A stretch of DNA of 64,000 nucleotides, taken from positions 40,265 through 104,264 of the forward strand of contig JAXDBQ010000032.1 of NCBI GenBank assembly GCA_034678605.1, written 5' to 3'. Within the stretch, counting starts at the first letter, position 1, and the number at the start of each line of letters is the position of its first letter. The notes under the pieces were generated by a model that ran no database searches, was not told where the DNA came from, and saw only the letters and a list, made by a program, of their open reading frames with translations. This document shows, in pieces, positions 7-56,823 of this stretch. Position numbers and translations under genes: made by a program. The DNA is from Patescibacteria group bacterium. Lineage in GTDB: Bacteria; Patescibacteriota; Minisyncoccia; Minisyncoccales; UBA5738.

Positions 7-1968
7 TTATGAGGGATTTTTTATGGGTTTGGGCTTTTCGCGGGCGACATTGGCCATGGGCTGGTTGGGCGAAGATCGGGCGGGTGCCGGATCTTCGATT
101 GGTTCGCTATAGGGCGATTCGGGCTGGTCGGCGGGCGGTTGGCCGCGGTTTTGATCTTGCCGGCTTTCCGGGGCCGCCGCCGCGGCTCCCTTTTGGATTT
201 CTTCTTTGGCGCGTTTGATCTTGGCGATCTCTTCGGGATTGGTGGTGATGATCTGGTCTTCGATGTAGGAAGACACCACTTTCATGGCCACGTGTTTTTG
301 GCCGGCAAAAAACAATCCCTCCCCGATCTCGGCTTCCAAAAGCATTCCTTTTTCTCTTTCGGTGAGGTTGAAGGTTTTTTGCACCACGTCGATGGTGGCC
401 GGCGATTGTTTCAGCAAGAATTGGATCGAAGAGTTGGTGATGATCGGCTGGCCGTAATTTGAGCGCATAAAGTCGGCCACGTCCTGGGTGATGGTGGTTA
501 CCCCCAGCCAATACTTGCGGGCGCGCTTGCACAGGCCGTACAAAAACGACGCGCCGTCTTCGCTTTGCATCAGCACCCAGGCCTCATCCACCACCAGGAT
601 CCGTTTGCGCAATTTGGAGCGGACTTTGTTCCAAATGTAGTGCATGATAATATACATCGCCGCGGTGCGCAATTCGTTTTCCATGTCGCGGATGCCAAAC
701 ACCACCAGCGGTTTTTCCATGGAAATGTTGGTGGGTTGATTGAAAAATTCGGCATAGGTGCCTTGGGTGAACTTGCGGATCCGGCGCACCAGCGAATCGG
801 TGCCGTCCATGCCTTCCAGCACCGCCTCAAGGTCGCGCATCAGCGGGACGCGTTCGGCCCATAAATTGGGGTCGGTTTCGGGGGTGATGTCTTTGGCGGC
901 ATAGACCTCGGTGAGCGCCCGATCGATGATCGCGTCCTCTTCGGGGGTCATGCCGCCCAAAAGAATGCGCACTAAGCCCACGATATTGATGATGTTGGAC
1001 CGGATCACATCGGCCGGATTTTCGTCTTCCCGTGGGTCGGGCAAGTCAAACGGGTTGATGTGGTAGGCCGACGACAGCGAAACATTCATAAACGATCCTC
1101 CCGTCGCTTCGGCCAAGGTTTTAAATTCGTTTTCCGGGTCAACCACAATGGCGTCCACGCCCAGCATCATGGAACGCAAGATCTCCAATTTCACCGCGTA
1201 GCTTTTTCCCGAACCGGATTTGGCGAAGATCACGCTGTTGGCGTTTTCCAAACTGAACCGGTCGAACAGGATCAGCGAGTTGTTGTGCAGGTTGGTGCCG
1301 TAAAGGATGCCCTCGTTGGCCGAAAGGTCGAACGATACGAATGGAAAGGTTGATGACAGCGGGCTGGTGTTCATCGGCGTGTAGATTTGGATTTTGTCCA
1401 AGGCGTAAGGGCAGGTGGAAATAAATCCTTCCCGTTGCTGGTACATTGCCGGTTTGATATAGACTAATTTTGATTCCAAGATCGAACGCAGGGTGGTTTC
1501 GATGTCGCGCAGTTTTTCGGCGTTATTCTCATAAGCGGTAAGATAGATTCCCAGGCGGAACATCCGTTCGGTGGAAGTTTGCAGTTTGTCGCGCAAGGAC
1601 TCCAAATCTTGGTAGGCGATGTCCAGCGCCGGGTCGCGCACCAGTCCTTTTTCTTCCCGCTCCATGATTTCGGCTTGCACTTCGGTGAGTTTTTTGCGCA
1701 ATTGTTTGAGAGTGGTGCCGGTGTCGATGGGATTGATGTGAAAAGCCACGTCCATGGGCGTGTCGAGATTAATCACCGGCGTGAACCACCCCGAGTTTAA
1801 ATAGCGCGGGTAGGAAAAAATAAAAAACGATTTGCCGAACCGCTCCCCGATCTTGAAGTTGTCGGCCAGCAGGACGACCGACGACGGCGCGATAATGTCG
1901 CGGATATTGATCGTTTTCATTTGCAATTCCTCGCCGGGAATGGATATTTTTTTGCTCTTTTTAACCAT
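7..1968 (-). CDS. virB4: Type IV secretion VirB4/TrbE-like ATPase, C-terminal ATPase portion (N-terminal ~220 aa encoded separately by 2142..2801)
   Basis: ORF 7..2028; Walker A FAKSGSGKSYAV; conserved VirB4 blocks IRDIIAPSS...FSYPRY..GWF and VVDPENEF; stop TAA at 7-9; the first 20 codons of the track ORF read through a palindromic repeat, so start is placed at ATG 1966-1968 (MVKKSKK). Confidence 0.7.
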   Translation of the reverse strand: MVKKSKKISIPGEELQMKTINIRDIIAPSSVVLLADNFKIGERFGKSFFIFSYPRYLNSGWFTPVINLDTPMDVAFHINPIDTGTTLKQLRKKLTEVQAEIMEREEKGLVRDPALDIAYQDLESLRDKLQTSTERMFRLGIYLTAYENNAEKLRDIETTLRSILESKLVYIKPAMYQQREGFISTCPYALDKIQIYTPMNTSPLSSTFPFVSFDLSANEGILYGTNLHNNSLILFDRFSLENANSVIFAKSGSGKSYAVKLEILRSMMLGVDAIVVDPENEFKTLAEATGGSFMNVSLSSAYHINPFDLPDPREDENPADVIRSNIINIVGLVRILLGGMTPEEDAIIDRALTEVYAAKDITPETDPNLWAERVPLMRDLEAVLEGMDGTDSLVRRIRKFTQGTYAEFFNQPTNISMEKPLVVFGIRDMENELRTAAMYIIMHYIWNKVRSKLRKRILVVDEAWVLMQSEDGASFLYGLCKRARKYWLGVTTITQDVADFMRSNYGQPIITNSSIQFLLKQSPATIDVVQKTFNLTEREKGMLLEAEIGEGLFFAGQKHVAMKVVSSYIEDQIITTNPEEIAKIKRAKEEIQKGAAAAAPESRQDQNRGQPPADQPESPYSEPIEDPAPARSSPNQPMANVAREKPKPIKNPS

Positions 1969-2141
1969 ACGATTTAAATTCAAGCACGAAGCACGAATAT
2001 TCGAAATTCGAAACAATATCAAAATCAAAAATTTTCAAAAATCAAAAAACGAGCGTGCATTTTGTTTTGGAAATTATGATTTTGGAAATTTGATATTATT
2101 TCGGATTTCGAAATTCGATATTCGGATTTCCCGAATTTATC
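1969..2141. repeat. Family-1 palindromic intergenic element (cgaatattcgaaattcgaaacaatatc ... cgaaattcgatattcggatttc) lying between the two virB4 fragments
   Basis: Arms are inverted copies of the motif seen at 8 other loci in this window; 173 bp, not a multiple of 3. Confidence 0.65.
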
Positions 2142-2801
2142 CTATTGGATCAATTCGGGCGGGATTTCCGGATAATATCCCCTTTCCGAGTCCTCCAAGT
2201 GATGCGTGCTCCACAAAAATTCGGCGATCTCCAAACTGTTGAGCGGCACGCATTGCAGGCCGCACCGCCGCAGGCCCAAGGCCACGAATTCCATTCGTTG
2301 CAGCAATTGGGATTTTCCCTGGTTGAATTGGTCGGCCGCCGCTTGGGCGATTTTGGCCCGGTCGGCCGGAGACACTTTCCCCTTTTTTGCTCCGGCCGGC
2401 GCCACGCCGGGCAGGATAATCTGTTGAAACGGCACCGTCACATAGAATGATTTGTTCATGATGGTGCCGCCCGAAACGATTTCGTTGATGAAATTGCGGT
2501 ATTCGATGATTTGGGCGCGCAAAAGATCGTTGCTTTGTTTGGCTTCAAGGTCGCTTAATTTGTCCAGATAGCTGGTGATGTTGAGCCGCCGGCTTTGGAT
2601 GGTGATCTGGATGGGAAAATCCATCGAGTTAAGAAAGTTTTGGAACTGGCCGATGACGGCGTTTTGTTCCTCTTCGGCCATGAGCGCGAAATTGATGGAA
2701 TTGACCATCATTATCCCCCGCAGGCCTTTGTTTTTCAAAACCAAAATCCCCTCTTTGATCTGGTCGATTTCCAAAAATTGTTGAGTCGATAGAATTGCCA
2801 T
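2142..2801 (-). CDS. virB4: VirB4 N-terminal domain fragment (split gene or pseudogene)
   Basis: 219 aa; block ILVLKNKGLRGIMMVNSINFALMAEEEQNAVIGQFQNFLNSMDFPIQI matches the conserved N-terminus of Gram-positive/CPR VirB4 (TraE/PrgJ-like); ends 113 bp upstream of the ATPase ORF. Confidence 0.55.
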   Translation of the reverse strand: MAILSTQQFLEIDQIKEGILVLKNKGLRGIMMVNSINFALMAEEEQNAVIGQFQNFLNSMDFPIQITIQSRRLNITSYLDKLSDLEAKQSNDLLRAQIIEYRNFINEIVSGGTIMNKSFYVTVPFQQIILPGVAPAGAKKGKVSPADRAKIAQAAADQFNQGKSQLLQRMEFVALGLRRCGLQCVPLNSLEIAEFLWSTHHLEDSERGYYPEIPPELIQ

Positions 2802-2913: not shown

Positions 2914-3330
2914 TTAAGCGGTTTCCAACCAGTCGCGGATCTTTTGGACATTGTTTTTGGCGGGGGCGGCGTTGATGGCCACGGTGGTCGGGGCTTTTTG
3001 GAAAACGATCTTTTCTCGCGCCACCACATGCTGGTTGGGGTTTTGAAAGCTTTGCCACAAAAAAATGCGCGGCGCCATTGAAAAAACAAAAAAATGTTGG
3101 ATTACTTTGACAATGTCGATGCCGTCGATCTTCACGAAGGCCAGGGCGCAACAGCCGCCCATGACGATGGCGATCAGCGCCAAGGCCAGCGGCATCACCG
3201 CTTTGCCCAGGGAAAAATAAATGGAAAACGACAGCACCGTGCCCACCGCCACGAACACGAATTGCTTGAAAGTGAGCGGCCCCACCACCTTGGACTCCAT
3301 CTCGATGAATTGCGGAATGGTGAAATTCAT
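2914..3330 (-). CDS. PrgI/VirB3-like small two-TM membrane protein
   Basis: 138 aa, two hydrophobic helices (VFVAVGTVLSFSIYF, LALALIAIVMGGCCALAF), lies immediately upstream of VirB4 as PrgI/VirB3 does in Gram-positive T4SS. Confidence 0.5.
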   Translation of the reverse strand: MNFTIPQFIEMESKVVGPLTFKQFVFVAVGTVLSFSIYFSLGKAVMPLALALIAIVMGGCCALAFVKIDGIDIVKVIQHFFVFSMAPRIFLWQSFQNPNQHVVAREKIVFQKAPTTVAINAAPAKNNVQKIRDWLETA

Positions 3331-3663: not shown

Positions 3664-4002
3664 TCAAACCTCAATGCCGAATTTTTTGATTTGCGCCGGC
3701 AAAGAAAACCAGCGGTTGGCAAGGTCATTTTCGCTCAAGAAATGCGGCTCGATCTTTATTTCGATCTCTTTGGCCCACCAAGCGCTGCGGTCGATTTTGG
3801 CGCGGTTGAAATCCTGGCTTGAATCCAAAACCACCGCCACGTCGATGTCGCTGTCGACGCGCGGTTTGCCTTTGGCGTAGGACCCGAACAAGATCATTTG
3901 TTTCACCGGCAGCCCTTCGGCCAGCAGTTTTTGCTTGAATTTATTGACCGCTTTTTTAACTTGGCCGGCGCTTAATTTTTTTCTTATCGCTTTGTTAGCC
4001 AT
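3664..4002 (-). CDS. Minimal nucleotidyltransferase (MNT) antitoxin-type protein
   Basis: GSYAKG....DSDIDVAV nucleotidyltransferase signature; 112 aa; overlaps the HEPN ORF by 19 bp. Confidence 0.8.
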   Translation of the reverse strand: MANKAIRKKLSAGQVKKAVNKFKQKLLAEGLPVKQMILFGSYAKGKPRVDSDIDVAVVLDSSQDFNRAKIDRSAWWAKEIEIKIEPHFLSENDLANRWFSLPAQIKKFGIEV

Positions 4003-4253
4003 GAATAAAATTTATTGATTTTTCCCAGCCAGGCCGCGGCGTATTTGGCGGTGGCGGTTTTGTGGAATTCCATTTTTTCCTCCGGATACCGGCCCTGGAT
4101 GTTGAATTTGTTGACGCTCGCCAAGAATTCCTGCTGATCCGGTTCCAATTGGATTTTGGCCAATCCGGCCAAATACAGCAAATCATGGGAATGGGGCGCG
4201 TGGCTGTCGGTGCTTTTCACGATTATGTGTTTGAAATATTTTTCCAAGGCCAC
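3984..4253 (-). CDS. HEPN domain protein (toxin partner of MNT)
   Basis: HSHDLLYL ... GRYPEE motifs of PF05168-type HEPN; operonic overlap with the MNT gene. Confidence 0.6.
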   Translation of the reverse strand: MALEKYFKHIIVKSTDSHAPHSHDLLYLAGLAKIQLEPDQQEFLASVNKFNIQGRYPEEKMEFHKTATAKYAAAWLGKINKFYSWLTKR

Positions 4254-6408: not shown

Positions 6409-7680
6409 TTATTTGCTTCTTAAATCTTCTGAAGGTGCTCTTGTGCTGTAAATTTCTTGCCGGACGCCGTAATCAAAGCTTTTTGATTTTGATTCTATTC
6501 CTTGTTCCAGCCCTTGTTTAAATCCGGGATTTTTTCTGTTTCCGGAAAGTCCTTTGCCGAGGGCGCCTCCCACTCCTCCGAGGCTGCCGGAAACTTTATC
6601 GCTTATTTGTCCGCTGAGAGCAGGAATCATCCCGGCGCAAATCGCTTCTACGGCCATCATGTAAATTGCGATCGCAAGCCAATAAAAATGGCGATCAGTG
6701 ATTGTGGAAACCACGTAAGTGCTAAATGTTAGCGGGGTATATTGGATATTCGCCGGCATTATCATTTTTGCCGAACTTAATCCCAGTGTTAGTAAAAACA
6801 GCATCACAATCCCTCCCAATGTCCAGCCGGTAAGCCAGCTCATCCAAGTGCGGAAATGAGATTCTGTTTTTTGCAAAACGCTGGCCAAAATTGCCAATGG
6901 CGCGAGAACGGCGAGTAATTGGATCATAAACACCCTGGTTAGGAAAAACATTGCATAGGAAAACAGAATGCCGGTAATCGTGCCCATCACCATTATTTGG
7001 ATTAAAATGTTTGGCAAAGTGGTGAGCATTAATAAAAACATACCACCAACCAATGCCAAACCGGCAAGAATGTTCACTCCAAGGATTGCCGAAGAAGTTG
7101 CGCCGGCAAGATAAATCCCAAATAATGTGGCGGCGCTTTTGGCGATATCCCAAGCAAAAACATTGAAAACTGAAGAAAAAATATCTCCACTGCCAACCAT
7201 TAAGCCAGTAGTTATTATGTTGGAAATATCCAATAACATGCCCACAAATAAGGGGGCAAAATGAATTAGCAGCGCGGCAAAAAAGAATTTTACCAGATTT
7301 TTTTTCGCGTTTATCGATTCTATGTTAAAAACTGTTCCCAATGCGATGGCGATAAAAACAACGATTAATAAAATGTCGGCCAAAGTGGTGGTGATGTTGA
7401 GGCCGGTTTTAACAAATACGCTGTTGTTTAGATCAAGCATTTGCGGAGTTTGGTCCAGCGAGACCTTGAGCAAGGTAGTGGCGGCTAATAAATATATCAA
7501 CCCGGTGGATAGTTGCTTGAACAAATCAAAAATATACTGCGTTACTGGTTTTACGTAATTTGAAAGCATTACTTCCATGCTGGCGGATTGGGCAATTGCG
7601 TGTTGCGGAATAATGCAAAGGGCTATTATTGATAATATACTTACGGATATTATTAATAAAATTTTTGTTGTTGTTTTCAT
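6409..7680 (-). CDS. VirB6/TrbL-like polytopic membrane protein with signal peptide
   Basis: Track ORF 6409..7710; likely start MKTTTKILLIIS at 7680; at least 7 predicted TM helices; size and topology fit VirB6-like channel proteins of Gram-positive/CPR T4SS loci. Confidence 0.5.
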   Translation of the reverse strand: MKTTTKILLIISVSILSIIALCIIPQHAIAQSASMEVMLSNYVKPVTQYIFDLFKQLSTGLIYLLAATTLLKVSLDQTPQMLDLNNSVFVKTGLNITTTLADILLIVVFIAIALGTVFNIESINAKKNLVKFFFAALLIHFAPLFVGMLLDISNIITTGLMVGSGDIFSSVFNVFAWDIAKSAATLFGIYLAGATSSAILGVNILAGLALVGGMFLLMLTTLPNILIQIMVMGTITGILFSYAMFFLTRVFMIQLLAVLAPLAILASVLQKTESHFRTWMSWLTGWTLGGIVMLFLLTLGLSSAKMIMPANIQYTPLTFSTYVVSTITDRHFYWLAIAIYMMAVEAICAGMIPALSGQISDKVSGSLGGVGGALGKGLSGNRKNPGFKQGLEQGIESKSKSFDYGVRQEIYSTRAPSEDLRSK

Positions 7681-7690
7681 TATTTCAATT

Positions 7691-8956
7691 TTATAATCCA
7701 AATAATCCAAGAAGATCTCTAAACGCGCCGATTATATTTTGGCCTGTGTTTTTAATTTTAGTCACTGCGCTTTGCTTTGTTTTATCCTTAACCATAACTC
7801 CGGTGACATATTCAAGATTGTTTTCGCTATATGCCCATTCTAAAAATTCTTTGGAATTTTTATCGCTTGTTTGATTTACGCAATCGTCGCCGGCGCCTCT
7901 GGTGTTATCCAGACAGCGGTTAATTTGGCATCCGCATGCCAAAAATCCGCATCGCTGAAGATCGGAGGTTGGATTGCCTTTTGCGTCCTTCACTTTGCTG
8001 AATGCTTCGTATGATCTTGGCTGGTTAACTGATCCTTGAGGGAAATAAATCCAGTTGCTATTTATCGCGCTGGCATCCATATCCCATGAGCTGCCTGTGA
8101 AATTTGGCTGGCTGTAAAATCTAACAACATCACAACCCATTTCTGGCGCGCCGGAAGTGGCCACGCACATTTTTGGATTTGGCAGACATATCTTTTTCCA
8201 AGTAGTTTTCTCGCCGGTGCTTGGATCGATACCATAATTGCAACCGCAATTCATATTTTGGCAGTCGGTATTTTTAGAACATTCAGCCCAATCCGCATTT
8301 GTACCCGCGGTTACTATTACGCCTTTAGCTAACGTTATTGAATCTGTCCCTTTTTCTATGCAACCGGTATCGTTTCCCCGGCAGCAATACCAATTTTTGG
8401 GAATGCAGGTTTGATCAAAATTTCCAGAAGCATCATTGCAACAATCGATTGCTTGCTCGCACTCTTTGTCTCCGAGCAAGAAATTCCTATTTTGGTTTTG
8501 TGGAATTGATGGCAAGGTTGAAGTTAGTTTGGTGAGATTGGGATTAAGCAAACGGAATATTGCCCAACTTGAAAGCAAAAGCACTAAACCGATGAGCGAT
8601 GATTTGATGCGTTTTTTTGCGTCGTTAACTTTATTCGGGTCAGCAACTGAAGTGATATATTCTACGCCGGCGATGATTAATGCGATAAAAACCGCTAATC
8701 CGCCCAGCCCTATTCCCCAGCCGAAAAAATAGCCCACAAGATCGGCAATCGTAGATTCTGGCTTAAGCTGGTACCCTCCGATTGGCGCATTCGGCCAGTC
8801 AATTTGCAGGGATTTGATCATTGGCTTGGGTGCTATACATTCTGTTTCGGCAAGATTTGCGGACGCAATTGGTATGGCCAAACAAAAACTTGACGCAATA
8901 ATTATTGGTAAGAAAAAAAGTTTGCCGGTATTGTTTTTTTGCTTTGGTTTATCCAT
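7691..8956 (-). CDS. VirB2/TrbC-like (PF18895-type) pilin domain protein with large Cys-rich C-terminal extracellular domain
   Basis: Signal peptide, then two-helix module GYFFGWGIGLGGLAVFIALIIAGVEYITS...KKRIKSSLIGLVLLLSSWAIF; C-terminal 260 aa contain about 22 Cys (CCNDASGNFDQTC, CCRGNDTGC, CQNMNCGCNYG). Confidence 0.5.
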   Translation of the reverse strand: MDKPKQKNNTGKLFFLPIIIASSFCLAIPIASANLAETECIAPKPMIKSLQIDWPNAPIGGYQLKPESTIADLVGYFFGWGIGLGGLAVFIALIIAGVEYITSVADPNKVNDAKKRIKSSLIGLVLLLSSWAIFRLLNPNLTKLTSTLPSIPQNQNRNFLLGDKECEQAIDCCNDASGNFDQTCIPKNWYCCRGNDTGCIEKGTDSITLAKGVIVTAGTNADWAECSKNTDCQNMNCGCNYGIDPSTGEKTTWKKICLPNPKMCVATSGAPEMGCDVVRFYSQPNFTGSSWDMDASAINSNWIYFPQGSVNQPRSYEAFSKVKDAKGNPTSDLQRCGFLACGCQINRCLDNTRGAGDDCVNQTSDKNSKEFLEWAYSENNLEYVTGVMVKDKTKQSAVTKIKNTGQNIIGAFRDLLGLFGL

Positions 8957-8965
8957 TTTTTTATG

Positions 8966-9724
8966 TTACCGTTTTTCGATTGGTCTTTCGGTTGTAGCCA
9001 GCGATATTGATTCCATTATTTTATCGACTTCCTGTAAAATTAATGAATCGCTGTTTTGCAAAATTGTGGTAATAATATATATATTATTACCGTTTGTGAT
9101 GATTGCGCTTTTTAATATTAAATTCGTGGCAATATTAGGCGATAACTCAACCAAATCATATTTTATTTCGATCGTTGGGATTATTTGTTCCCCTTTTATT
9201 AACTCTGATTGGGTGATTTTAGCGGCAACGCCTTTTTCTTGGATGTTTTTTTTGTATTGTTCAATAATCGCTTCAGTGCTTGTTGAGTACGATTCTTCCA
9301 CTGTTAAATAATTGATTGCAATTGATGCTGATGAGAGGATGTTTATTTTTTGCGCTGAAAAAAATAATTTGCCGTTGTTGTTGCTTATTTCGGCTTGATT
9401 TGCAATTTCCTGCCAGTCGGAGGGGTAGTCGAAGGAGAAAGAGCTGTCCGGGGCGGTGTAGGTTTTGGTGGAGGTGGCGGCGGAGTCGTTGGCGGCGGCG
9501 GAGTTTTGCTGGTTTTGGGTTTGATTTTGCAATTGGCCTTGGATTTGGCCCATCATTTGGCTCAATTGGTCGTTGGCGTTGGGCATGTTAGTCAATTCTT
9601 GGGGCAGGCCGAATTGCAGGTTTTTCACGTTGGTCTGGAATTGCTGATATTGCCACATCGTGGAGCCCACCAAAAAGGCGATCATTACGAACACGCCGAT
9701 AAGATATAGTTGAACCAATTTCAT
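8966..9724 (-). CDS. Bitopic membrane protein with Q/N-rich linker and C-terminal globular domain (VirB8-like position), hypothetical
   Basis: 252 aa; TM LYLIGVFVMIAFLVGSTMW, then QNQTQNQQNSAAANDSAATST low-complexity, then about 150-aa domain. Confidence 0.45.
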   Translation of the reverse strand: MKLVQLYLIGVFVMIAFLVGSTMWQYQQFQTNVKNLQFGLPQELTNMPNANDQLSQMMGQIQGQLQNQTQNQQNSAAANDSAATSTKTYTAPDSSFSFDYPSDWQEIANQAEISNNNGKLFFSAQKINILSSASIAINYLTVEESYSTSTEAIIEQYKKNIQEKGVAAKITQSELIKGEQIIPTIEIKYDLVELSPNIATNLILKSAIITNGNNIYIITTILQNSDSLILQEVDKIMESISLATTERPIEKR

Positions 9725-9972: not shown

Positions 9973-10335
9973 TCAGTCGGATTTTCTGACGATTGAACCA
10001 AAAATTTTCATCAATTCTTCGGCTTCTCGCAAAAGAATATTTTGTTCTTTTGCCAATTCTTGATTATTGCCATTATCGATCAATTTCAACCAATAACAAG
10101 TTTCTTTGGCTTCTTTGCGGCTGATTTTAACGCGCATATTGAAATCTTTTTTGCTCAACGCTTCGTTGGCTTCGATGTAATTGGCCCCGATTGATCCGGA
10201 AGATCGAGCGAGCTGTTTGATGTCTTCCAAATTTGAAACCGTGCGCGGCAATTTTTTCAAAAACAATCTTGTGTTTTTCGCGAACAAATAAGTTCTTTTT
10301 TCCAAGTTGTATGGTTTTGAATTTGTTTCAGTCAT
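9973..10335 (-). CDS. Four-helix-bundle protein (23S rRNA intervening-sequence protein family)
   Basis: GSIGANYIEANEALSKKDF...ISRKEAKETCYWLKL hallmark; 120 aa; flanked on both sides by family-1 repeats. Confidence 0.8.
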   Translation of the reverse strand: MTETNSKPYNLEKRTYLFAKNTRLFLKKLPRTVSNLEDIKQLARSSGSIGANYIEANEALSKKDFNMRVKISRKEAKETCYWLKLIDNGNNQELAKEQNILLREAEELMKIFGSIVRKSD

Positions 10336-10395: not shown

Positions 10396-12924
10396 TTAGA
10401 TTTGCCACCATGTTCCCGAGTAGCCGAACAGCGACAGGAATACGCCCACGATCAGCCAGGCAAAGAACAGCAGGCCGTAGCCGATGCCGATTAGTTTCCA
10501 CCAGGAGATGACTTTTTGCTTTAAATCGGGCGTGGAAAAATTGGTGAAAAATATTCCGGCGGTGGCAAGCCCCAAAATGGGCAAAAGCCAAAACGACATT
10601 TGGAACAAGAATAAATTAATGATCTGCATCGCGTTGAGCAAAAGGTGCTTTGCGCCGCATTTTTCGCGGTCATCCCATTCGGTGTTGGGGTTGTCGTTGG
10701 TCATGCCGCACACGGCCATCACTGCCTGCCCTTTTTTGATTTCTTGGCCGCCGGCCACAAAATCAAAGCTCCAAATTTCGGGCGTGGCGCCCGCGTCTTT
10801 GCATTGCGCGTCCAAGCAGGCCAGCACGCTCCATTGGTATTTGCCCAAGCAGAACATCTGGTCGATGTCGTTGTCCACCATTATCGAAGTGTCTTTGACG
10901 ATCTTTTCCACTTTGGGCCCGGGAGCGCAATCTTTATTGGTTTCCTTTTCCGAAACCTCTTTGTATTCCAAGGCGACTTTGTAATAATGCGCGCCGGCCA
11001 CCGGCTGCCACGATAGGTTGTAAGCGATTTGGCTGTTGTCCAGCGTGCTGCTGGCATTGGCCGGCGTTTTGGAGGCACCCAGGGCCGCGGTGGCAAACGA
11101 AAATTCCGGGCCGGCCGGGCCGCAAAGCGCGGCGCTGGCGTCGGCGCAGGTTTGCACTTTCCATTTATAGGATTGTTTTTGGTTGATGGTCGGATAGTCC
11201 AGGGTGTATTGGTTGGTAGCAGTTGTGATCTTTTGGCCGCCAAAATCCAAAATATAGGCCTTGGCGCCGGCAACCGCTTCCCATTGCAATTCAACCGGCA
11301 TGGCTACATCTTTGGCATTGTTGGTCGGTTGCATGGACGCGGTTTTGGGCGCGCGGCCGGTGGTGCGAAAATACCACCAGTCCGACCACGGCTCGTTGCA
11401 CACCTCGCCCACCGGAATTGCCGGCCAGCAGGACTTGGCGCGCCATTTGTAGGCCGTGTCCAATTCCAGTTCGATGTTTTGTTCTTCGCCTTTGGAATTA
11501 TTGGCGTTGCCTTTGGTGAAAAGCACTTGCGAAGTGGTCACGCGGCGTTCGCCGTTGACCAATGAGGTCGCGCCGGCGCCGGAAATTTTTTGAATGTCAT
11601 AGCCATAGGAATTGGCGCCGTTGGGCGCTTGCCATTGCAGGCGGCCGGGAAGTTCGGTGAGCTTGGCGTTTTGGTTGTCGGCATAATTGTTGTCGTTTCC
11701 CGGCGACAAAAGCGCGGGCGCGGGAACGGTTTCGTTTTTATCGGTGAAGGTCCACAACTGCCCCCAATATTTGTCGCTTTGGGTGTTGCAGTTTTCGTCG
11801 CCGGCATTGGTATTGTTGAAACAGCGCCGCAATTGCCAGTAATAGGTGTTGTTTTTGGTGAACAGCGCCCGGTCGGTGTTGGGCAATTGAAGGTGCGACC
11901 ACCAATAGCAATCGATAGCGGGGTTGTTGGCCAAGCATTTAACGTTTCTTGGGGTTTTGGCCTTGATGGGATTGACTACGTCGGCCTTGCAGGTGTTGTT
12001 GGTTTGTTTTTCCAGATAATGGCAGGCCAGCGGGTTTTTCAGCGCCGGCGTGTCTTTTTTGAGCCAATTGGCCAAGTCGCTGAATTTGGCCGGGATTTGC
12101 GCGCCGGTGAGCACCAATTGGTTTTCGTTGGTGTAGACGCGCATTTGGTATGACAGCGAATAGGGCTCGTTTTCGTTATAGGGCTGTTTTTCTTTTGAGA
12201 CCTGCGCGTGGCACCAATCCAGCCGCAGGTTTTTGTAGGAAATATTTTTGGCGCCGGCCGGGCCGTTCCAATCGGGATCGTCAAAATTTATCGGTTCGGG
12301 CGCCGGGCTGGTGCGAAAGGTCCACCAAGTGGCGTTTTCTTCGGGCTGGCAATAGGAGCCGTTTTCCTTGCAACACGGCCGCACGCGCCAACGGATGGTT
12401 TTGTCGGAGTTGTAAAAGCAGGGGTAATACAAATCCCGAGCGTTGAACTCGTTGGTGGTGAGGATTCGGCGGAAAATGCCGCCTTTGCTTTCGTCGTCGT
12501 TTAGTTCGCCGTTTTTGTTTTCGATCTCCAAAAGATAGGAGCGCGCGCCATAGGCCTTGGAGGTGGCGGCTTGGTTGCCCTGGCGGCCGTCCCATTCCCA
12601 ATGGTATTGGCCGTTTTCCAATTGCCACAAGGCGATGTGATCCCAGGCCAGCACCACCGGCAAAGTAACTTCGTTTTCGTTGGCTTGTTTGGTTTTGTTC
12701 ACCGGATCATCCAAGTAATAATGGCCGGGCGGGGTTTTTAAACAAGCGTTGGCGCAAATGCAGGTGGTCACGTCAACTTCCACCACATTGGTCATGGATT
12801 GTTTTTGTTCGGGCTGGCATTGAATGCCGCCGGCGATTGTGGCGCCGCAACCGCTTTCGGCGATCGCCGCCGCCGGCGCGATCAACGCCAGCGCCAGCGC
12901 GAGTTTGAAAAAATTGGTTTTCAT
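10396..12924 (-). CDS. Giant secreted surface protein: signal peptide, tandem FN3-like disulfide-containing repeats, C-terminal VirB2/TrbC-like two-TM pilin domain
   Basis: 842 aa; signal MKTNFFKLALALALIAPAAAIA; about 6 repeats with Y.W.V..C....C....W.F.T signature; C-terminus LLPILGLATAGIFF...KLIGIGYGLLFFAWLIVGVF is paralogous to the C-terminus of 13136..16084. Confidence 0.7.
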   Translation of the reverse strand: MKTNFFKLALALALIAPAAAIAESGCGATIAGGIQCQPEQKQSMTNVVEVDVTTCICANACLKTPPGHYYLDDPVNKTKQANENEVTLPVVLAWDHIALWQLENGQYHWEWDGRQGNQAATSKAYGARSYLLEIENKNGELNDDESKGGIFRRILTTNEFNARDLYYPCFYNSDKTIRWRVRPCCKENGSYCQPEENATWWTFRTSPAPEPINFDDPDWNGPAGAKNISYKNLRLDWCHAQVSKEKQPYNENEPYSLSYQMRVYTNENQLVLTGAQIPAKFSDLANWLKKDTPALKNPLACHYLEKQTNNTCKADVVNPIKAKTPRNVKCLANNPAIDCYWWSHLQLPNTDRALFTKNNTYYWQLRRCFNNTNAGDENCNTQSDKYWGQLWTFTDKNETVPAPALLSPGNDNNYADNQNAKLTELPGRLQWQAPNGANSYGYDIQKISGAGATSLVNGERRVTTSQVLFTKGNANNSKGEEQNIELELDTAYKWRAKSCWPAIPVGEVCNEPWSDWWYFRTTGRAPKTASMQPTNNAKDVAMPVELQWEAVAGAKAYILDFGGQKITTATNQYTLDYPTINQKQSYKWKVQTCADASAALCGPAGPEFSFATAALGASKTPANASSTLDNSQIAYNLSWQPVAGAHYYKVALEYKEVSEKETNKDCAPGPKVEKIVKDTSIMVDNDIDQMFCLGKYQWSVLACLDAQCKDAGATPEIWSFDFVAGGQEIKKGQAVMAVCGMTNDNPNTEWDDREKCGAKHLLLNAMQIINLFLFQMSFWLLPILGLATAGIFFTNFSTPDLKQKVISWWKLIGIGYGLLFFAWLIVGVFLSLFGYSGTWWQI

Positions 12925-13049
12925 TTTATTTTTGTTTTTTGTTTCAATTTAATTATATCGCTTAAAAATCAAAACCGCAATTTTGAAACAAATTTAATCA
13001 ATTGCCGGGACAAGACGAACGTTAGTATTTGGATTCAAATGCTGTTGAC

Positions 13050-13088
13050 GGGGTCTAACCGCCCGCGAGTACTCGGGGGTTAGACCCC
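13050..13088. other. GGGGTCTAACC...GGTTAGACCCC hairpin element (family 5), reverse orientation
   Basis: 11-bp perfect stem with palindromic loop; related copies at 31381 and 60383. Confidence 0.55.
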
Positions 13089-13135
13089 AAAAAATGCTAA
13101 TACTCGGTTTGCTTTGACAAGCTATTGCTATAAAA

Positions 13136-16084
13136 TCACAATAGCGCGTTCCAGCTGGCGGCGGCGCTGTAGCCGGCAAATTGCATTAATAGTGAAACGA
13201 TGATCCAGGCGAAGATCAAGATCAAATAGCCGATGCCGATCTTGCGCCAGGTGTCTTTAATTTCGGCCAAAAGCTTTGATTTGTCTTGTGCCAGATAAAA
13301 AATTCCGCCGGTGATCGCGCCGGCGATTGGCAACAGCATCAACGCCAATTTGAAGATCACAAAATTAATGATCACCTTGGCCAGCAAAAACAAATGTTTT
13401 ATTTGGCAGGGCTCTTTTTCGTTGTATTCGGGCGTGTTGATTTTGTCGTCATAGTTTTGGCCGCAAACCATCAAGCCGGCGGTTTGTTTTTTTTCGATGA
13501 TCGAAAATGTTTGGGTGGCTTTTTTCGCGCCCGAACTCAATGATTTGCATTGGGAATCAAACGCCGGCTGAACCGAAAAGGAATATTGGCCGCCGCAATA
13601 TTGCGAGCTGCCGGTCTCTTTTGATTTGATCGCCAAACTGGTGCCGGCAACGCATTTTTCTTTATACTCATCGTTGAACCATTTTGGATCGCAACTGGTG
13701 CTGTCTTCGCCGCCGGCCACTTGAACGCTCACTTGATAATATTTGGCCGCGCCGCTCCAGCTCAAGCTTGGCGGAAGCTGGTTGATTTGATCTTCTGGCG
13801 CCAATCCCGTTGGCTTGTCAAAGTCCGCGGTTTTGAACGGCAGGATGTTGGTTTTGGCCGCACCGCAAATTTGTCCGGCCGCGTCGGCGCAAGTTTTCAC
13901 CGTCCAGTCGTATTTTTGATCAAAGGCCGAATAGTTAAACGAATATTGCGCGGCGGTGAGTACCAATTCGTTTTTGGGCGCGTCCGGGCCGGTGATCTTG
14001 ACGCGATAAGAACCGGCGCCGGGAACGCTTTCCCATTCGAGCGCGGCCGTGGGTGCGCTGGTTTTGGCGGTGGCGGTGAGCGGCGGACGGCCGGTGGTGT
14101 AAAAATAATTTGCCGGGCTCAACGACTTGCTGCAAATTTCATCGATCTTTTTGTTGGCCATGGGTATTGACGGCCAGCAGGATTTGACTTGCCATTGGTA
14201 GAGCGTGTCGAGTTTTAATTTTACCCGTCCGGGGTCGTTTTCTTGCGCCGGATCTTTGTCGGTTGTTAATGATATTAAAATTTGCGACACGGTCGCGCGC
14301 CGGCCTTGGTCGGCGGTATAAGTTTTATCTTTCTCAAAGATGCTGGCGCCGGTCTTGGCGTCTTTGATGTCGTAAAGGAAAGAGTTGGCGCCGCAGGGGG
14401 CCGTCCATTGAATGCTTCCGCCCTCTCCCACCAATCCCACCGGATCGCGGTTGCTTTTGTTTTTGTTGTTTGGCGGCGCCAACGGCGCGGGCGCGGTCAA
14501 ATTGGTGTCGGTGAACTTTTCGCCGGAGAATTTCCATTTTTGGCCGTAATCTTCATTATTGTAAGTGGCGCAAAACGGGAATTGCTTTTCGTCACCTTTT
14601 TTACCGGAAATGACATCAAAGCAAACTTTGGTTTGCCAAGAATAGATAAGATTCCCGTCGGCGTTGCCGGAAAAAAGGTTGCGGATCTTTTCTTGGTCAA
14701 AATACGGATGGAAATTCTGGTTTGGCTCAATAATCTCTTTTAAGTAGCTTGTGAACGGCACGCTTTCCGGTCTGCAGGTGCCGTCGTTTTGCAGTTCCAA
14801 ATAGTGGCACGACTCGCCGTCGCGTTGGCTTTCGGGCTGGTTGAAGGCGTTGAGGGCTTTGTTTTTCACTCCGGCCAATGATTTTGAAAGGTAATCGGAA
14901 AAGGCCTGGCTCAAATTGTTTGACCAAGAGCTGCTTGATAGCGTTTTTTGCATTATTGATTGGTAGTCCGACGGGCTTGTCCCGCCGATACTTCCCAAAA
15001 GATCCATCAGCGACCATGTTTCATTGAATTTAACGCGCATCTGATAATTGGCGGCATAATCAGCTTGGCTGGCATTATATTTTTTTGAGAAACGCGCGTT
15101 GTCGTCGGTCATCAATTTGGCTTTGCACCAATAGGGCTTGGCACTGCAAAAATGAACATCGGTTAATTTATCCGGGCCGTTCCAATCGGGGTCTTGGGTT
15201 GGATTCTTTTTGTTCGGGTGATTGTTGTCAACAATTCCCAGCGGTTCGGGTCCCGGGCCGGTGGTGAATGTCCACCACCCTTCGTCGTTTCCCATGGGTT
15301 TGCAGGTTGATTCTTCGCCGTTGGCGTCGCAGCAAGGTCGCACGCGCCATTGGTAGGCGGTGTTGGTGTTAAAAAAACATGCTCCCCCGTCCTCGCGGGA
15401 ATTAAACCCATCATTGATGCCGTCGTTATTTTTGTCGGCGATCACTTTGAAAAATATTTTGCCGCCGCCCAGCGCCTCGATGTTGTTGGGGTTGATGGTT
15501 TTGTCAATGTGCAGATTCGCGTCGCCGTTTTTGTATTCCTCATATTTGATCTCCACCCGGTAGCTTTGCGGGCCGCTGTCCACTTTTGTCGGTCCGTTTT
15601 TATATATCGGCGTTTTGTAAGGGTCTTTGTTTTTCCAACCGGCAATATCGTTCCATGCCAAAACCACCGGCAAAGTGATTTGGTTTGATTTTGTTTGCCG
15701 GGTATGATTTTTGGGATCGTCATAATACAAGGGGTTGGCGCTTGAATCAAACGGGGCTTCCAAGCATTCTTTTTCGCATTTGCACACGCCATAGTCGCTG
15801 CCGGTTTTGGCGACTTGCCAATCTTTGCAATATTGCATTGGTGGCCGGATGATCTTGCATTCTCCCGGCTTGCCTCCGGGAACTTCTCTTAATTCTTTTA
15901 TGAGCGAGCTTTTTCCATTTTGGTTGTGGCATTTACTATCATTGATTTGCTCTTCGTAATATTTTATATGTCCCGAACATGCTTTAGCTTCATTGCTAAA
16001 ACCAAAAATTATTACTGTTGAAAACAGCATAATCGAAAACGCGCGGAAAAAAATAGTTTGATTGCTTTTTAAAAATCGGGTCAT
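13136..16084 (-). CDS. Giant secreted surface protein, paralog of 10396..12924 (FN3-like Cys repeats plus C-terminal VirB2-like pilin domain)
   Basis: Track ORF 13136..16120; likely start MTRFLK at 16084; shared motifs RVRPCC...WWTFTTGPGPEP, DPDWNGP; C-terminus KHLFLLAKVIINF...LLPIAGAITGGIFY...KIGIGYLILIFAWIIVSLL. Confidence 0.7.
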   Translation of the reverse strand: MTRFLKSNQTIFFRAFSIMLFSTVIIFGFSNEAKACSGHIKYYEEQINDSKCHNQNGKSSLIKELREVPGGKPGECKIIRPPMQYCKDWQVAKTGSDYGVCKCEKECLEAPFDSSANPLYYDDPKNHTRQTKSNQITLPVVLAWNDIAGWKNKDPYKTPIYKNGPTKVDSGPQSYRVEIKYEEYKNGDANLHIDKTINPNNIEALGGGKIFFKVIADKNNDGINDGFNSREDGGACFFNTNTAYQWRVRPCCDANGEESTCKPMGNDEGWWTFTTGPGPEPLGIVDNNHPNKKNPTQDPDWNGPDKLTDVHFCSAKPYWCKAKLMTDDNARFSKKYNASQADYAANYQMRVKFNETWSLMDLLGSIGGTSPSDYQSIMQKTLSSSSWSNNLSQAFSDYLSKSLAGVKNKALNAFNQPESQRDGESCHYLELQNDGTCRPESVPFTSYLKEIIEPNQNFHPYFDQEKIRNLFSGNADGNLIYSWQTKVCFDVISGKKGDEKQFPFCATYNNEDYGQKWKFSGEKFTDTNLTAPAPLAPPNNKNKSNRDPVGLVGEGGSIQWTAPCGANSFLYDIKDAKTGASIFEKDKTYTADQGRRATVSQILISLTTDKDPAQENDPGRVKLKLDTLYQWQVKSCWPSIPMANKKIDEICSKSLSPANYFYTTGRPPLTATAKTSAPTAALEWESVPGAGSYRVKITGPDAPKNELVLTAAQYSFNYSAFDQKYDWTVKTCADAAGQICGAAKTNILPFKTADFDKPTGLAPEDQINQLPPSLSWSGAAKYYQVSVQVAGGEDSTSCDPKWFNDEYKEKCVAGTSLAIKSKETGSSQYCGGQYSFSVQPAFDSQCKSLSSGAKKATQTFSIIEKKQTAGLMVCGQNYDDKINTPEYNEKEPCQIKHLFLLAKVIINFVIFKLALMLLPIAGAITGGIFYLAQDKSKLLAEIKDTWRKIGIGYLILIFAWIIVSLLMQFAGYSAAASWNALL

Positions 16085-16091
16085 TAGATAA

Positions 16092-16910
16092 TTATAATTC
16101 AAAAGAGCGGGCAAGGCCAATCCAATTTTCCACGGCCAGGTCTTGCGCCCGGCAATTTCGCGGCAGATCGTTTTTGGCCAGCCATTCGATTGCTCGTTCG
16201 CGGCTGATATTCAAGCCGCCGGCCAGATTGCCGGCCAATTGTTTGCGCGGGTGGGCAAAGCCGGCTTTGGCGATCTTAAAGAACCGATCGATGAATTCTT
16301 TTTTGCACCCCTCCCCTGCTTTCGGAAACAGGTCGAGGCGCAGGATCGCGCTGTCGACTTTGGGCACGGGCCAAAAACAGCCGCGCGAAATTTGGCCGAT
16401 GATATTTGGCGCGGCATAGAACTGCACCGACAATGCCAACAAGTTCATTCGCGGCGGCTGGGCGCAAATTCTTTGCGCCACTTCTTTTTGCGCGATCACC
16501 GCCATTGATCGCGGCGGATTGCCGCTTTCCAAGAATTTGCGGATCATGGGCGCGGCGGCGTAGAAAGGCAAATTGGCAACGATCTTATAAGGCGGGATGA
16601 TCTTGCTTTCGTTGAATTTGAGCGCGTCGGCATTGATGATCTCGACATTTATCGCGTCGGCGAATTCTTTTCCGAGGATTGCGGCCAGCTCGCGGTCTTT
16701 TTCCACGGCAATCACGCGGTTGCCGGTTTTGGCCAATTCCCGCGTCAAATTGCCGGTGCCCGGGCCGATCTCCAAAATCGTTTGGTTATCTCCAAGCTCG
16801 GCGGCGGCGATCAATTTTTTGATCACGCCGATTTGGTTCAAAAAATTTTGCCCCAGCCGTTTTTTGGGTTTGACGGATGGTTTTTGGTCGTTTGTGTTTA
16901 TCATGATCAT
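16092..16910 (-). CDS. rsmA: 16S rRNA (adenine1518/1519-N6)-dimethyltransferase
   Basis: KKRLGQNFL, LEIGPGTGNLT SAM-binding motif; 272 aa. Confidence 0.9.
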   Translation of the reverse strand: MIMINTNDQKPSVKPKKRLGQNFLNQIGVIKKLIAAAELGDNQTILEIGPGTGNLTRELAKTGNRVIAVEKDRELAAILGKEFADAINVEIINADALKFNESKIIPPYKIVANLPFYAAAPMIRKFLESGNPPRSMAVIAQKEVAQRICAQPPRMNLLALSVQFYAAPNIIGQISRGCFWPVPKVDSAILRLDLFPKAGEGCKKEFIDRFFKIAKAGFAHPRKQLAGNLAGGLNISRERAIEWLAKNDLPRNCRAQDLAVENWIGLARSFEL

Positions 16911-17133: not shown

Positions 17134-18204
17134 ATGGATATTAAGCTTCAATTAAGGAATTTTGCCAAACTTCTCCTCATCGGAGCGGTTTTGTTTACCG
17201 GATTTTTTGCCGCCTCTCATCAGGCGGTTCGTTGCGTGTCGGCCAAAAGCGAGCCGGTTTGCCAAGCCGACACCGTCGAAAGGATGTTTGCCAAGGCCGA
17301 CGATCAGCCCAAACCCGAGTCCCCGGGCTATTTGATGGCCGGCGACGCGTGCGTCAAGGCGGTTTTGCCGCCCGCGGCCATCACGCCCAAAATTTTGGGC
17401 GCGATCGTGGGCGATTCCCAGGGATATGTTCAAGAAGAGGATTCTCAAAATACCATCGTTGAATATGAAATTCAACCGGATGATACCATCGCCGGCGTGG
17501 CCCAAAAATTCGGCGTGAGTTCCGAAACCGTGGCTTGGGCCAACGATTTGGCCAAAACCGCGCCGTTAAAACCGGGGCAAAAATTGATCGTTCCGCCGGT
17601 TTCGGGCGTGATCCATTATGTGGTTTTTGGCGACACCATGGACAAAATCGCCCAATCATACAAAGCCGAAGCTGAGGAGATCGTGGCGTTCAACGAGTTG
17701 GCCGGTCAAGATGATATTTTCGTGGGTGATGTTTTGGTGGTGCCCGGCGGCCGGATCGCGCCGCCGCCGGTGGCCAAAAAGCCGGTGGCGTCAAATGCCA
17801 AATCAAGCCCGTCAAAAATCGCGTCGGCGCCGATTGGGCAAGCATTGCCGCAGAATTATTTCCTTTGCCCGGTGGGCCCGGCTTGCAAAAAAACTCAAGG
17901 GTTGCATTTTCGCAACGCGGTTGATTTGACCGGCGGTTATTGCGGCGCGCCGATCTACGCGGCGGCTTCCGGCACCGTCGCCAAAGCCAAAACCGGCTGG
18001 AACGGCGGCGCGGGCAATAACATCGCGGTCTCCCATATGGGCGGCGCGGTGATCACTCATTATTATCATTTGCAATCATTTAACGTGGCCTCCGGCCAGG
18101 AAGTCAAAAAGGGCGATGTTATCGGGTTTATGGGAAGCACCGGCAAATCGACCGGTTGCCATCTTCACTTTGAAGTGATCGGCGGAACCAATCCCTTCAA
18201 TTAA
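17134..18204 (+). CDS. LysM-repeat M23 family metallopeptidase (peptidoglycan hydrolase)
   Basis: Two LysM motifs (DTIAGVAQKFGVS, DTMDKIAQSYK); C-terminal M23 motifs HYYHLQS and HLHFEV; N-terminal TM. Confidence 0.85.
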   Translation: MDIKLQLRNFAKLLLIGAVLFTGFFAASHQAVRCVSAKSEPVCQADTVERMFAKADDQPKPESPGYLMAGDACVKAVLPPAAITPKILGAIVGDSQGYVQEEDSQNTIVEYEIQPDDTIAGVAQKFGVSSETVAWANDLAKTAPLKPGQKLIVPPVSGVIHYVVFGDTMDKIAQSYKAEAEEIVAFNELAGQDDIFVGDVLVVPGGRIAPPPVAKKPVASNAKSSPSKIASAPIGQALPQNYFLCPVGPACKKTQGLHFRNAVDLTGGYCGAPIYAAASGTVAKAKTGWNGGAGNNIAVSHMGGAVITHYYHLQSFNVASGQEVKKGDVIGFMGSTGKSTGCHLHFEVIGGTNPFN

Positions 18205-26998: not shown

Positions 26999-27415
26999 TT
27001 ACGGCCCGGTCGGACAATTCACGCTGTTAAAATCCAACGGGTTATCGACGATGTATCCGGCCCCCTTTAATCCCGTGGTTATTATCGCGAAACTGCCGTA
27101 GATCAACGCCAGCCCGATGATCACCATTAAAATTATTTTTTTGGATTCGGCCAAGACCTCGGAATTGTTTTGGTTGATCAGCATTTTGAAACCGGCGATC
27201 GCGATCACCAATCCGGCGGCCACCGGCACAATCCCCACGATCACCAAAATGATGATATTGTCGATCAATTCGAACAAATGGCATATTCCGCATTGCGGTT
27301 GGCCCGCGCCGCCGCAAGCCGGCAACAATTGCTCGGGGTCTCTTGCCAGCGCTTGGCCGAAAAGCGAAAAAGTCAATAGTGTTCCCAAAATAATCGTTGT
27401 TAATTTTTTTTTCAT
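26999..27415 (-). CDS. Small VirB2/TrbC-like (PF18895-type) pilin
   Basis: 138 aa; signal peptide, CGGAGQPQCGICHLFELIDNIIILVIVGIVPVAAGLVIAIAGF ... SKKIILMVIIGLALIYGSFAIITTGL two-helix module. Confidence 0.6.
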   Translation of the reverse strand: MKKKLTTIILGTLLTFSLFGQALARDPEQLLPACGGAGQPQCGICHLFELIDNIIILVIVGIVPVAAGLVIAIAGFKMLINQNNSEVLAESKKIILMVIIGLALIYGSFAIITTGLKGAGYIVDNPLDFNSVNCPTGP

Positions 27416-56725: not shown

Positions 56726-56823
56726 CCTGATCTTCCGGTTCTTTTTTTATATAAACGCGCGAAGGGCTTCAATTATTCGCCAAATTTGCTACATTCAAAG
56801 TGTGTAAAATCTTATTTATTGTT

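Follow-up and report, generated by a model that had tools for sequence, protein, structure and literature searches.

Giant proteins with a predicted fibronectin type III-like stalk and a VirB2-type pilin module in the type IV secretion locus of a patescibacterium

Introduction

Which surface proteins does a host-dependent patescibacterium use to make contact with its host cell? The question is raised by a 64,000-nt stretch of contig JAXDBQ010000032.1 (assembly GCA_034678605.1), hereafter the window, in whose numbering all coordinates are given. Within a cluster of type IV secretion system (T4SS) genes, it carries two giant open reading frames (ORFs), here named A and B, whose products end in a module resembling small VirB2-type pilins, together with two further pilin-type ORFs, C and D. 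The window is chromosomal DNA of the Candidate Phyla Radiation (CPR), with genes for PNPase, KsgA, RecG, FtsH, IF-2, IleRS and a Mur ligase.

Patescibacterial T4SSs descend from MPF-FATA systems. They encode VirB2-like pilins close to virB4, with 2-11 pilin genes per array, and a survey of them detected no PrgB-like adhesin (Quinonero-Coronel et al., 2025, PMC12102498). In Southlakia, epibiotic growth requires T4SS and pilin genes (Wang et al., 2023, PMC10633639). In Patescibacteria that live as parasites of methanogens, T4SS pilins rank among the unknown surface proteins with the highest expression (PMC10936435), and a 2025 review regards patescibacterial T4SSs as unique among monoderms in their potential for conjugative pili (PMC12857230). 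In the papers on patescibacterial T4SSs that we consulted, we found no mention of a pilin module fused to a large ectodomain.

The best reading of the results reported here is that A and B are surface components of a chromosomal, monoderm-type (MPF-FATA-like) T4SS of a Paceibacteria/Minisyncoccales-type CPR bacterium. Below, we present their architecture, the relationship of their C-terminal module to small pilins and their position in the T4SS locus, and weigh what they may do at the cell surface.

Results

Two giant paralogs with the same architecture

ORF A (10396..12924, minus strand) starts with ATG and encodes 842 aa, comprising a signal peptide, a Cys-rich cap, five repeats similar to fibronectin type III (FN3) domains, a linker and a pilin-type helical hairpin. 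ORF B (13136..16084, minus strand; 982 aa from its ATG) is a paralog with an identical architecture. The longest frame of B extends over 13136-16120 from a TTG start and would give 994 aa, and the ATG at 16084 gives 982 aa, in agreement with orthologs of 980-982 aa. The two proteins align over ~800 aa, nearly their full length, with 32% identity (BLASTP, E = 1e-117), and are therefore true paralogs. A preliminary description of this DNA had already placed two large paralogous ORFs here, each with a signal peptide and both ending in a common two-helix hydrophobic module. These proposals are borne out by the two minus-strand ORFs and their alignment, and by a Kyte-Doolittle scan, which found one N-terminal, signal-like and two C-terminal hydrophobic segments in each protein; the shared module was also recovered by a hidden Markov model (HMM), as described below.

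In A, the signal-peptide-like segment covers residues 1-22 (12859..12924, minus strand; MKTNFFKLALALALIAPAAAIA), as judged by hydropathy, with a predicted local distance difference test score (pLDDT) below 50 in the AlphaFold2 (AF2) model. It is followed by an N-terminal Cys-rich beta cap with 5 Cys (residues 23-79; 12688..12858, minus strand), which forms the membrane-distal end. Overall, A contains 26 Cys and 33 Trp, and B contains 28 Cys and 22 Trp. A sequence motif scan of the two proteins found neither an LPXTG sorting signal nor a lipobox, the single LP.[TSA]G match being LPIAG at B 930, inside helix 1; a sortase or lipoprotein anchor is thus ruled out. NCBIfam has no model matching A or B, and Pfam and NCBIfam indicate no adhesin family and no enzyme domain in either protein. 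A DNA-level tandem repeat or an assembly artefact is also ruled out, as the protein sequences of the repeats have diverged from each other and dozens of independent assemblies keep the full architecture. The 211-bp spacer between B and A contains a GC-rich 14-bp inverted repeat at 13050-13088 (GGGGTCTAACCGCC / GGGGGTTAGACCCC, with an 11-nt loop), which could be a transcript-processing or attenuation hairpin.

Five repeats with a predicted FN3-like fold

To delimit the repeats, a family alignment of A and 42 homologs (A1) was cut into candidate units, which were compared with each other by HMM and hhalign. This yielded five units in A and five in B, with lengths of 85-177 aa whose spread is due to insertions, and not the 6-8 repeats of roughly 90-100 aa given in the preliminary description. 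The HMM of each unit cross-matches the remaining units in A and B alike. In A, the units are R1 (residues 80-210; 12295..12687), R2 (residues 222-398; 11731..12261), R3 (residues 405-527; 11344..11712), R4 (residues 533-618; 11071..11328) and R5 (residues 622-727; 10744..11061), all on the minus strand and all FN3-like, R2 being divergent and carrying a helix-containing insertion. In B, R1-R5 occupy 13499..15697 (minus strand), corresponding to residues 142-292, 317-532, 548-680, 684-770 and 778-874 in the numbering of the 994-aa frame.

Repeats R1, R3, R4 and R5 are mutually homologous, with hhalign probabilities of 96-98% for most pairs and 78% for R3 versus R5. R2 has a large insertion, and its C-terminal half alone matches the other repeats (44-89%). 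The motif Y.W.V..C ... C ... W.F.T corresponds to the final two strands of every unit, and each of the two proteins contains it five times, the fifth repeat of B lacking the motif Cys (YSFSVQPAF). The two motif strings quoted in the preliminary description do occur, one at residue 177 of A and the other at residue 256 of B.

The AF2 model of A, built from alignment A1, has a mean pLDDT of 86.2 and a predicted template modelling score (pTM) of 0.64. Beta strands dominate residues 28-723, at 7-8 per repeat, with extra helices in R2; a disordered linker (729-754) and two long helices (758-793 and 799-832) follow. When this model was compared to the PDB with Foldseek, the top matches were tandem FN3 arrays, including the gp130 ectodomain (E = 4.5e-13), the neck of the grappling-hook protein GhpA, the IL-12, leptin and OSM receptors, FN3 domains 1-4 of LAR, titin and fibronectin. 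A and B themselves have no fn3-type match in Pfam. In homologs, the stretch that apparently corresponds to R3 passes the thresholds of Ig_Rha78A_N (36.8 bits versus 27.4), fn3 (28.8 versus 25) and Pur_ac_phosph_N, and R1, R4 and R5 are tied to R3 by hhalign probabilities of 78-98%. Predicted structure thus supports the assignment of the repeats to FN3/Ig-like sandwiches, the fold that had been anticipated from the sequence, and the transitive sequence matches in homologs are in keeping with it. Given the invariant Cys pairs, each FN3-like domain is probably stapled by a disulfide between the Y.W.V..C strand and the next loop.

A C-terminal module related to small T4SS pilins

The T4SS_pilin-type module of A covers residues 735-842 (10399..10722, minus strand) and consists of a conserved Cys...Cys loop (C739, C756) and, after it, two helices (758-793 and 799-832) that are joined by a short loop rich in Lys. 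That of B was located by Pfam, the module HMM and hhalign at residues 882-994 of the 994-aa frame (13139..13477, minus strand). We aligned 42 diverse giant modules (A2) and 17 small pilins of the D family (A3), and compared the two profiles. They match with an hhalign probability of 97.2% and an E-value of 2.8e-11; the 84 matched columns run from the second Cys to the G-Y that follows helix 2. The match begins before helix 1, in a non-hydrophobic stretch that reads C-x-x-K-H-L in the giants and C-x-I-C-[HN]-L-F in the small pilins, and the likeness of the modules therefore goes beyond shared hydrophobicity. Against the C module alone, the profile of the giant modules gave a probability of 58% (E = 1e-4). 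When the module HMM was run against the 656 six-frame ORFs of the window, it retrieved only A, B, D (E = 2.3e-6) and C (E = 1.2e-3); since just these four were picked, the four-way similarity is real and beyond chance.

ORF D (26999..27415, minus strand; 138 aa) is a stand-alone small pilin and a candidate major pilin. Its own scores against T4SS_pilin (23.4 bits) and TrbC (PF04956; 20.9 bits versus a cut-off of 27.9) are both below threshold; in precomputed annotation, its orthologs carry PF18895 (T4SS_pilin) and several of them PF04956. ORF C (7691..8956, minus strand; 421 aa) has a signal peptide, a T4SS_pilin module (residues 71-137; 40 bits, above threshold) and a C-terminal domain of ~280 aa, which is the reverse of the layout of A and B, with 21 Cys in the whole protein. 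C also passes NCBIfam NF045849 (Mbov_0395 pilin-like conjugal transfer protein; 45.2 bits, cut-off 40), a pilin-like family of Mycoplasma integrative and conjugative elements that A and B do not match, and this match links the locus to MPF-FATA-type systems carrying a pilin-like protein.

Within the giant family, the module helices are the best-conserved stretches, with a mean pairwise identity of 0.48-0.49 versus 0.39 in the ectodomain, and the module has invariant Cys and Gly positions and near-invariant His and Trp. Such conservation of the helices is atypical for a passive anchor. A conserved G-[LI]-V-P-C-G marks the junction of ectodomain and pilin module. Against PF18895, matches at E<=0.01 were obtained for 21 of 43 family members, and P0042, an ortholog of B, scores above the gathering threshold of 26.6 bits (27.1 bits). 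AF2 predicts the isolated module with a pLDDT of 83 and helices at 26-61 and 66-99, and all four ORFs (A-D) have a hairpin loop rich in Lys. Structure searches with this hairpin by itself were non-specific, giving results indistinguishable from those of any other helical hairpin. In summary, profile comparisons support the homology of the C-terminal module of A and B to VirB2-type pilins, as opposed to a generic double-transmembrane anchor. They agree with the preliminary description both in this similarity to VirB2/TrbC-type pilins, the matched small-pilin family being one that carries PF18895 and PF04956, and in its statement that the module recurs in the 138-aa ORF D and in C. Neither refuting condition set in that description, a generic anchor or repeats with no Ig-like fold, was borne out.

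Conserved position in a T4SS locus

Synteny was analysed in 19 related loci (L001-L019), and gene order was judged where the flank suffices. Every locus with an adequate flank, in relatives at 25-65% identity, shows the same order, p989-ChlI-M23/LysM(-)-KsgA-B-A-(IVP)-PsbP-like-pilin C-VirB6-like...PrgI-TraC-like-VirB4. The more distant relatives L005 and L006 have one giant gene, not two. In L001, L005 and L006 the cluster is followed by R3H/YidC, with RnpA as well in two of them, which indicates that it adjoins the origin region.

In a further relative (L020), the slot directly after KsgA is occupied by P0262 (7137-7571 of that locus), a protein of 144 aa in which a signal peptide is followed by a module of the giant type (G-F-V-P-C...), 60% identical to that of the giant P0050 from L005; the same PsbP-like and pilin C genes lie downstream. 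As this slot holds a bare pilin, the giants are positional counterparts of a T4SS-locus pilin. Most likely they are its orthologs, in which the FN3 ectodomain separates the signal peptide from the pilin, and P0262 acts as a natural minimal version of the giant gene.

A large family, in part with hydrolase domains

A word-indexed search with A retrieved 51 clusters, all from metagenomes or CPR metagenome-assembled genomes (MAGs). A phmmer search with B against 1.84 billion representatives retrieved 444 proteins at E<=1e-3, 112 of them at E<=1e-30, and the superfamily comprises at least 444 clusters at 50% identity. Lengths among the 150 phmmer matches listed range from 108 to 1668 aa, the shortest (from 108 aa) probably being fragments. 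The module ends within 0-10 residues of the C-terminus in 197 of the 198 proteins retrieved by the searches with A and B, most of which have 4-6 detectable repeats. A search with the module profile returned mostly C-terminal fragments of giants on short contigs, and only P0262 and P0267 look genuinely small.

Hydrolase domains are present in a minority of the family: Peptidase_M23 (3/53 sampled), one GH5 cellulase, and C39- and C70-like peptidases. P0050 (10001-13285 of L005) has its Peptidase_M23 domain within repeat R1, as an insertion at the membrane-distal end. NCBI already names a few family members 'pilin' (in Ca. Pacebacteria, Minisyncoccales and Ca. Nealsonbacteria DGGOD1a). The pilin match itself is therefore already in databases and T4SS pilins are a known class, of which the giant fusion form is a variant. 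One ortholog, UMX47909.1, belongs to Ca. Nealsonbacteria DGGOD1a, an epibiont of Methanothrix. The taxonomic breadth of the family is under-sampled here (13 loci from the narrower alignment A5). The MAG SO_2016_LW1_25 has three separate contigs (L016, L017 and L019), each with a member of the giant family; genomes of this type may represent three paralogs or mixed strains.

Other genes of the cluster and its surroundings

The secretion genes at the left end of the window are all on the minus strand. They begin with a VirB4-type ATPase (7..2028; TraG P-loop, AAA_10) and a TraC-like or TrsD-like protein resembling the N-terminal part of VirB4 (2142..2801); the TraC/TrsD-like ORF lies directly upstream of the P-loop ATPase ORF, and this two-gene arrangement is found in all related loci. 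Then come the VirB3-like PrgI (2914..3330; 45.7 bits) and a polytopic membrane protein of 433 aa with ~6-7 hydrophobic segments (6409..7710), which we call VirB6-like on the basis of its position and topology only. Between PrgI and the VirB6-like gene there are two other ORFs and an overlapping pair formed by a HEPN gene (3984-4253) and a minimal nucleotidyltransferase gene (3664-4002), which looks like a toxin-antitoxin module. The window has 40-43% GC at ~4-10 kb, versus ~50% for A and B.

A PsbP_2-like exported protein (8966..9724, minus strand) is conserved between the giant genes and pilin C. A gene for a four-helix-bundle protein of the 23S-rRNA-intervening-sequence type (IVP) lies inside the T4SS cluster at 9973-10335. 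Some related loci have it in the interval from A to the PsbP-like gene and others in that from PrgI to the TraC-like gene, and it appears to move within the cluster. Upstream of B, KsgA (RrnaAD; 16092..16910, minus strand) is the conserved neighbour that marks the slot, followed by a divergent and also conserved gene for a LysM and Peptidase_M23 protein (17134..18204, plus strand). An ORF of 989 aa (20614-23583) has no Cys, no Pfam match, a Lys/Glu/Ala-rich N-terminus and one hydrophobic segment at 743-772, and lies upstream of ChlI in nearly all related loci. Farther away, an IleRS-like class I synthetase of 1186 aa (56800-60360) has a His_Phos_1 domain inserted at 504-666, which splits its catalytic domain.

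Discussion

Proposed host-contact proteins built on a pilin module

With slightly better than even confidence, we take A and B to be T4SS-associated host-contact adhesin or stalk proteins built on a VirB2-type pilin module. They would do the job of the PrgB-type adhesins or VirB5 tip proteins of other T4SSs, and we know of no better candidates for the host-contact adhesins still missing from the patescibacterial T4SS. According to this proposal, A and B would be exported by the Sec pathway through their N-terminal signal peptide, whose subsequent cleavage is suggested by hydropathy. Some 700 aa would then fold oxidatively outside the cell into the Cys-rich cap and a five-domain FN3 stalk, with an estimated length of ~20 nm. 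The VirB2-type hairpin would insert so that its two ends lie outside and the Lys-rich loop faces the cytoplasm, an orientation that follows from the positive-inside rule and corresponds to the topology of a pro-pilin. There, the module may engage the VirB4/PrgI/VirB6-like machine, either being fed into a short pilus made mainly of the small pilin D or docking laterally, and the FN3 stalk would project outward and contact the envelope of the host cell, where relatives would also present a hydrolase.

In the VirB2 family, both termini of the hairpin point outward in the membrane as well as on the pilus, as seen in the F- and T-pilus structures. A fusion at the N-terminal side of the module, as in A and B, or at its C-terminal side, as in C, would consequently decorate the outside of a filament that could consist mainly of D, a small and highly conserved pilin. 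A true incorporation of A and B into the filament nevertheless seems doubtful to us. The most far-reaching version of the idea is that monoderm CPR bacteria build modular conjugative-type pili, with minor, tip or bottle-brush subunits that each bear an FN3 stalk of ~80 kDa and, in some lineages, show a wall hydrolase (M23, GH5, C39) to the host, a possibility that we consider unlikely on present evidence.

Several points weigh against our proposal. A and B score below the gathering threshold of PF18895 (18.0 bits, E = 0.0031, and 12.5 bits, E = 0.16, respectively). Neither protein matches PF04956 (TrbC/VirB2) at E<=1, and when the module alignment was run as a profile against the sequences of all PDB chains, no pilin was returned, the matches being weak transmembrane-helix noise. 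It is the fold class that suggests adhesion, no binding domain with a known ligand having been identified in A or B, and hydropathy that suggests cleavage of their signal peptides. We know of no case in which a VirB2-family pilin polymerises with a large ectodomain fused to it, and an 80-kDa appendage on every subunit would crowd the filament.

Alternative roles

The strongest rival, which we hold to be possible though clearly less probable than a host-contact role tied to the secretion machine, is that A and B are static membrane-anchored adhesins or form an envelope layer. Their pilin-derived hairpin would then be an anchor, perhaps also a docking tag for the T4SS, and would never leave the membrane or join a filament. 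In keeping with this, the module changes sides with respect to its large, Cys-rich ectodomain, being C-terminal in A and B but N-terminal in C, as if it were a portable anchor. The ectodomain is very large with respect to the pilin unit, and the lack of LPXTG or lipobox alternatives in these proteins means that a helical anchor would be needed; the structure searches, as seen above, fail to separate the hairpin from any other. Against a static anchor, the helices are better conserved than the ectodomain, with invariant or near-invariant Gly, Trp, His and Cys positions in the module, and the bare pilin in the L020 slot argues for a function of the module itself. Moreover, the outward termini of the VirB2 hairpin make N- or C-terminal fusions geometrically compatible with assembly.

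A second alternative assigns to A and B a structural or wall-remodelling part in the T4SS and no host binding: the FN3 stalk would span both the wall and the S-layer of the CPR cell, and would scaffold the channel or position hydrolases, in the manner of VirB1/PrgK or VirB8/PrgL. The superfamily members with Peptidase_M23, GH5 cellulase or C39/C70-like peptidase domains fit this idea, as do the M23 domain inserted in R1 of P0050, the LysM-M23 gene that is a fixed neighbour of the giants, and the lack of VirB1 in most Patescibacteria with VirB2 homologs (PMC12102498). We nonetheless find it improbable, as A and B have no enzyme domain themselves, and the hydrolase of P0050 is membrane-distal, at an estimated ~20 nm, where a partner cell would be a better fit than the cell's own wall. 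The maintenance of two diverged tandem paralogs across the clade is also more typical of surface-recognition proteins.

Finally, a C-terminal segment that is only a generic double-transmembrane anchor with a compositional resemblance to pilins, in proteins unrelated to the T4SS, would agree with the sub-threshold Pfam matches of A and B, the equally weak TctB match from the same Pfam scan and the lack of PDB matches, but is made very improbable by the hhalign match to the small-pilin family, which includes the non-hydrophobic Cys..KH / C.ICHLF segment, by the retrieval of only four pilin-type ORFs among 656, by the strict synteny with VirB4, PrgI and the VirB6-like gene, and by the bare pilin that fills the orthologous slot in one relative.

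Relation to known pilins and adhesins

The closest counterparts of the module are the VirB2-like pilins of CPR bacteria (PF18895; PMC10633639, PMC12102498). A and B share with these pilins the layout of the module, in which a Cys segment leads to a long helix, and a short Lys-rich loop connects this helix to a second one that has a small-residue motif; the two groups are homologous in profile-profile comparison, and both are encoded in T4SS clusters with VirB4, PrgI and a VirB6-like gene. However, the pilins are described as small stand-alone proteins, whereas A and B have an FN3-like ectodomain of ~700-870 aa between signal peptide and module. Proteins of the A type were probably not counted in the survey of PMC12102498, which used a cut-off of i-E<0.001, since A scores E = 0.003 against PF18895.

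The TrbC/VirB2/TraA pilins of diderm T4SSs (PF04956; F-, T- and pKM101-type) share with A and B the signal peptide, the two-helix hairpin, the outside termini (predicted in A and B) and the linkage to VirB4/VirB3/VirB6. PF04956 is matched by D and its orthologs, and not directly by A and B. These pilins differ from the giants in having no known ectodomain fusion, and the bacterium that encodes A and B is a monoderm whose machine is MPF-FATA-like. Strict VirB2/TrbC pilins are also small single-domain proteins of ~70-130 aa when mature, whereas A and B have 842 and 982 aa, of which the module is only the last ~110.

A pilin module combined with projecting beta-rich binding or stalk domains is well known from FimH and PapG of chaperone-usher pili, from the minor pilins CofB and TcpB of type IVb pili and from the tip adhesins of sortase pili. 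A and B have this design principle in common with such two-domain adhesin-pilins; their pilin folds and assembly machines are unrelated, and the adhesin is a proven tip or minor subunit there, whereas the incorporation of A and B would be hypothetical. With PrgB-type adhesins and VirB5 tip proteins, A and B share the proposed role of T4SS-encoded contact with the target cell. We found no sequence similarity between them, and A and B have a pilin-type hairpin as anchor in place of LPXTG.

Implications for the patescibacterial T4SS

Patescibacteria depend on hosts, their T4SS is essential in the sole genetically tractable species, and the published survey is without an adhesin. In this context, the giant family offers a concrete and widespread candidate for host contact that is hard-wired into the T4SS locus, and in which a long FN3 stalk and, in certain lineages, cell-wall hydrolases are joined to a pilin unit of the VirB2 type. 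Pilin counts obtained with fixed thresholds on small-pilin profiles probably miss such large fusion proteins. The ortholog in Ca. Nealsonbacteria DGGOD1a, which is maintained in an enrichment culture attached to Methanothrix, makes the hypothesis experimentally approachable. If the giants were incorporated into the filament, they would represent the first class of VirB2 pilins fused to adhesins or enzymes, and the host-recognition determinant of the essential patescibacterial T4SS would have been identified.

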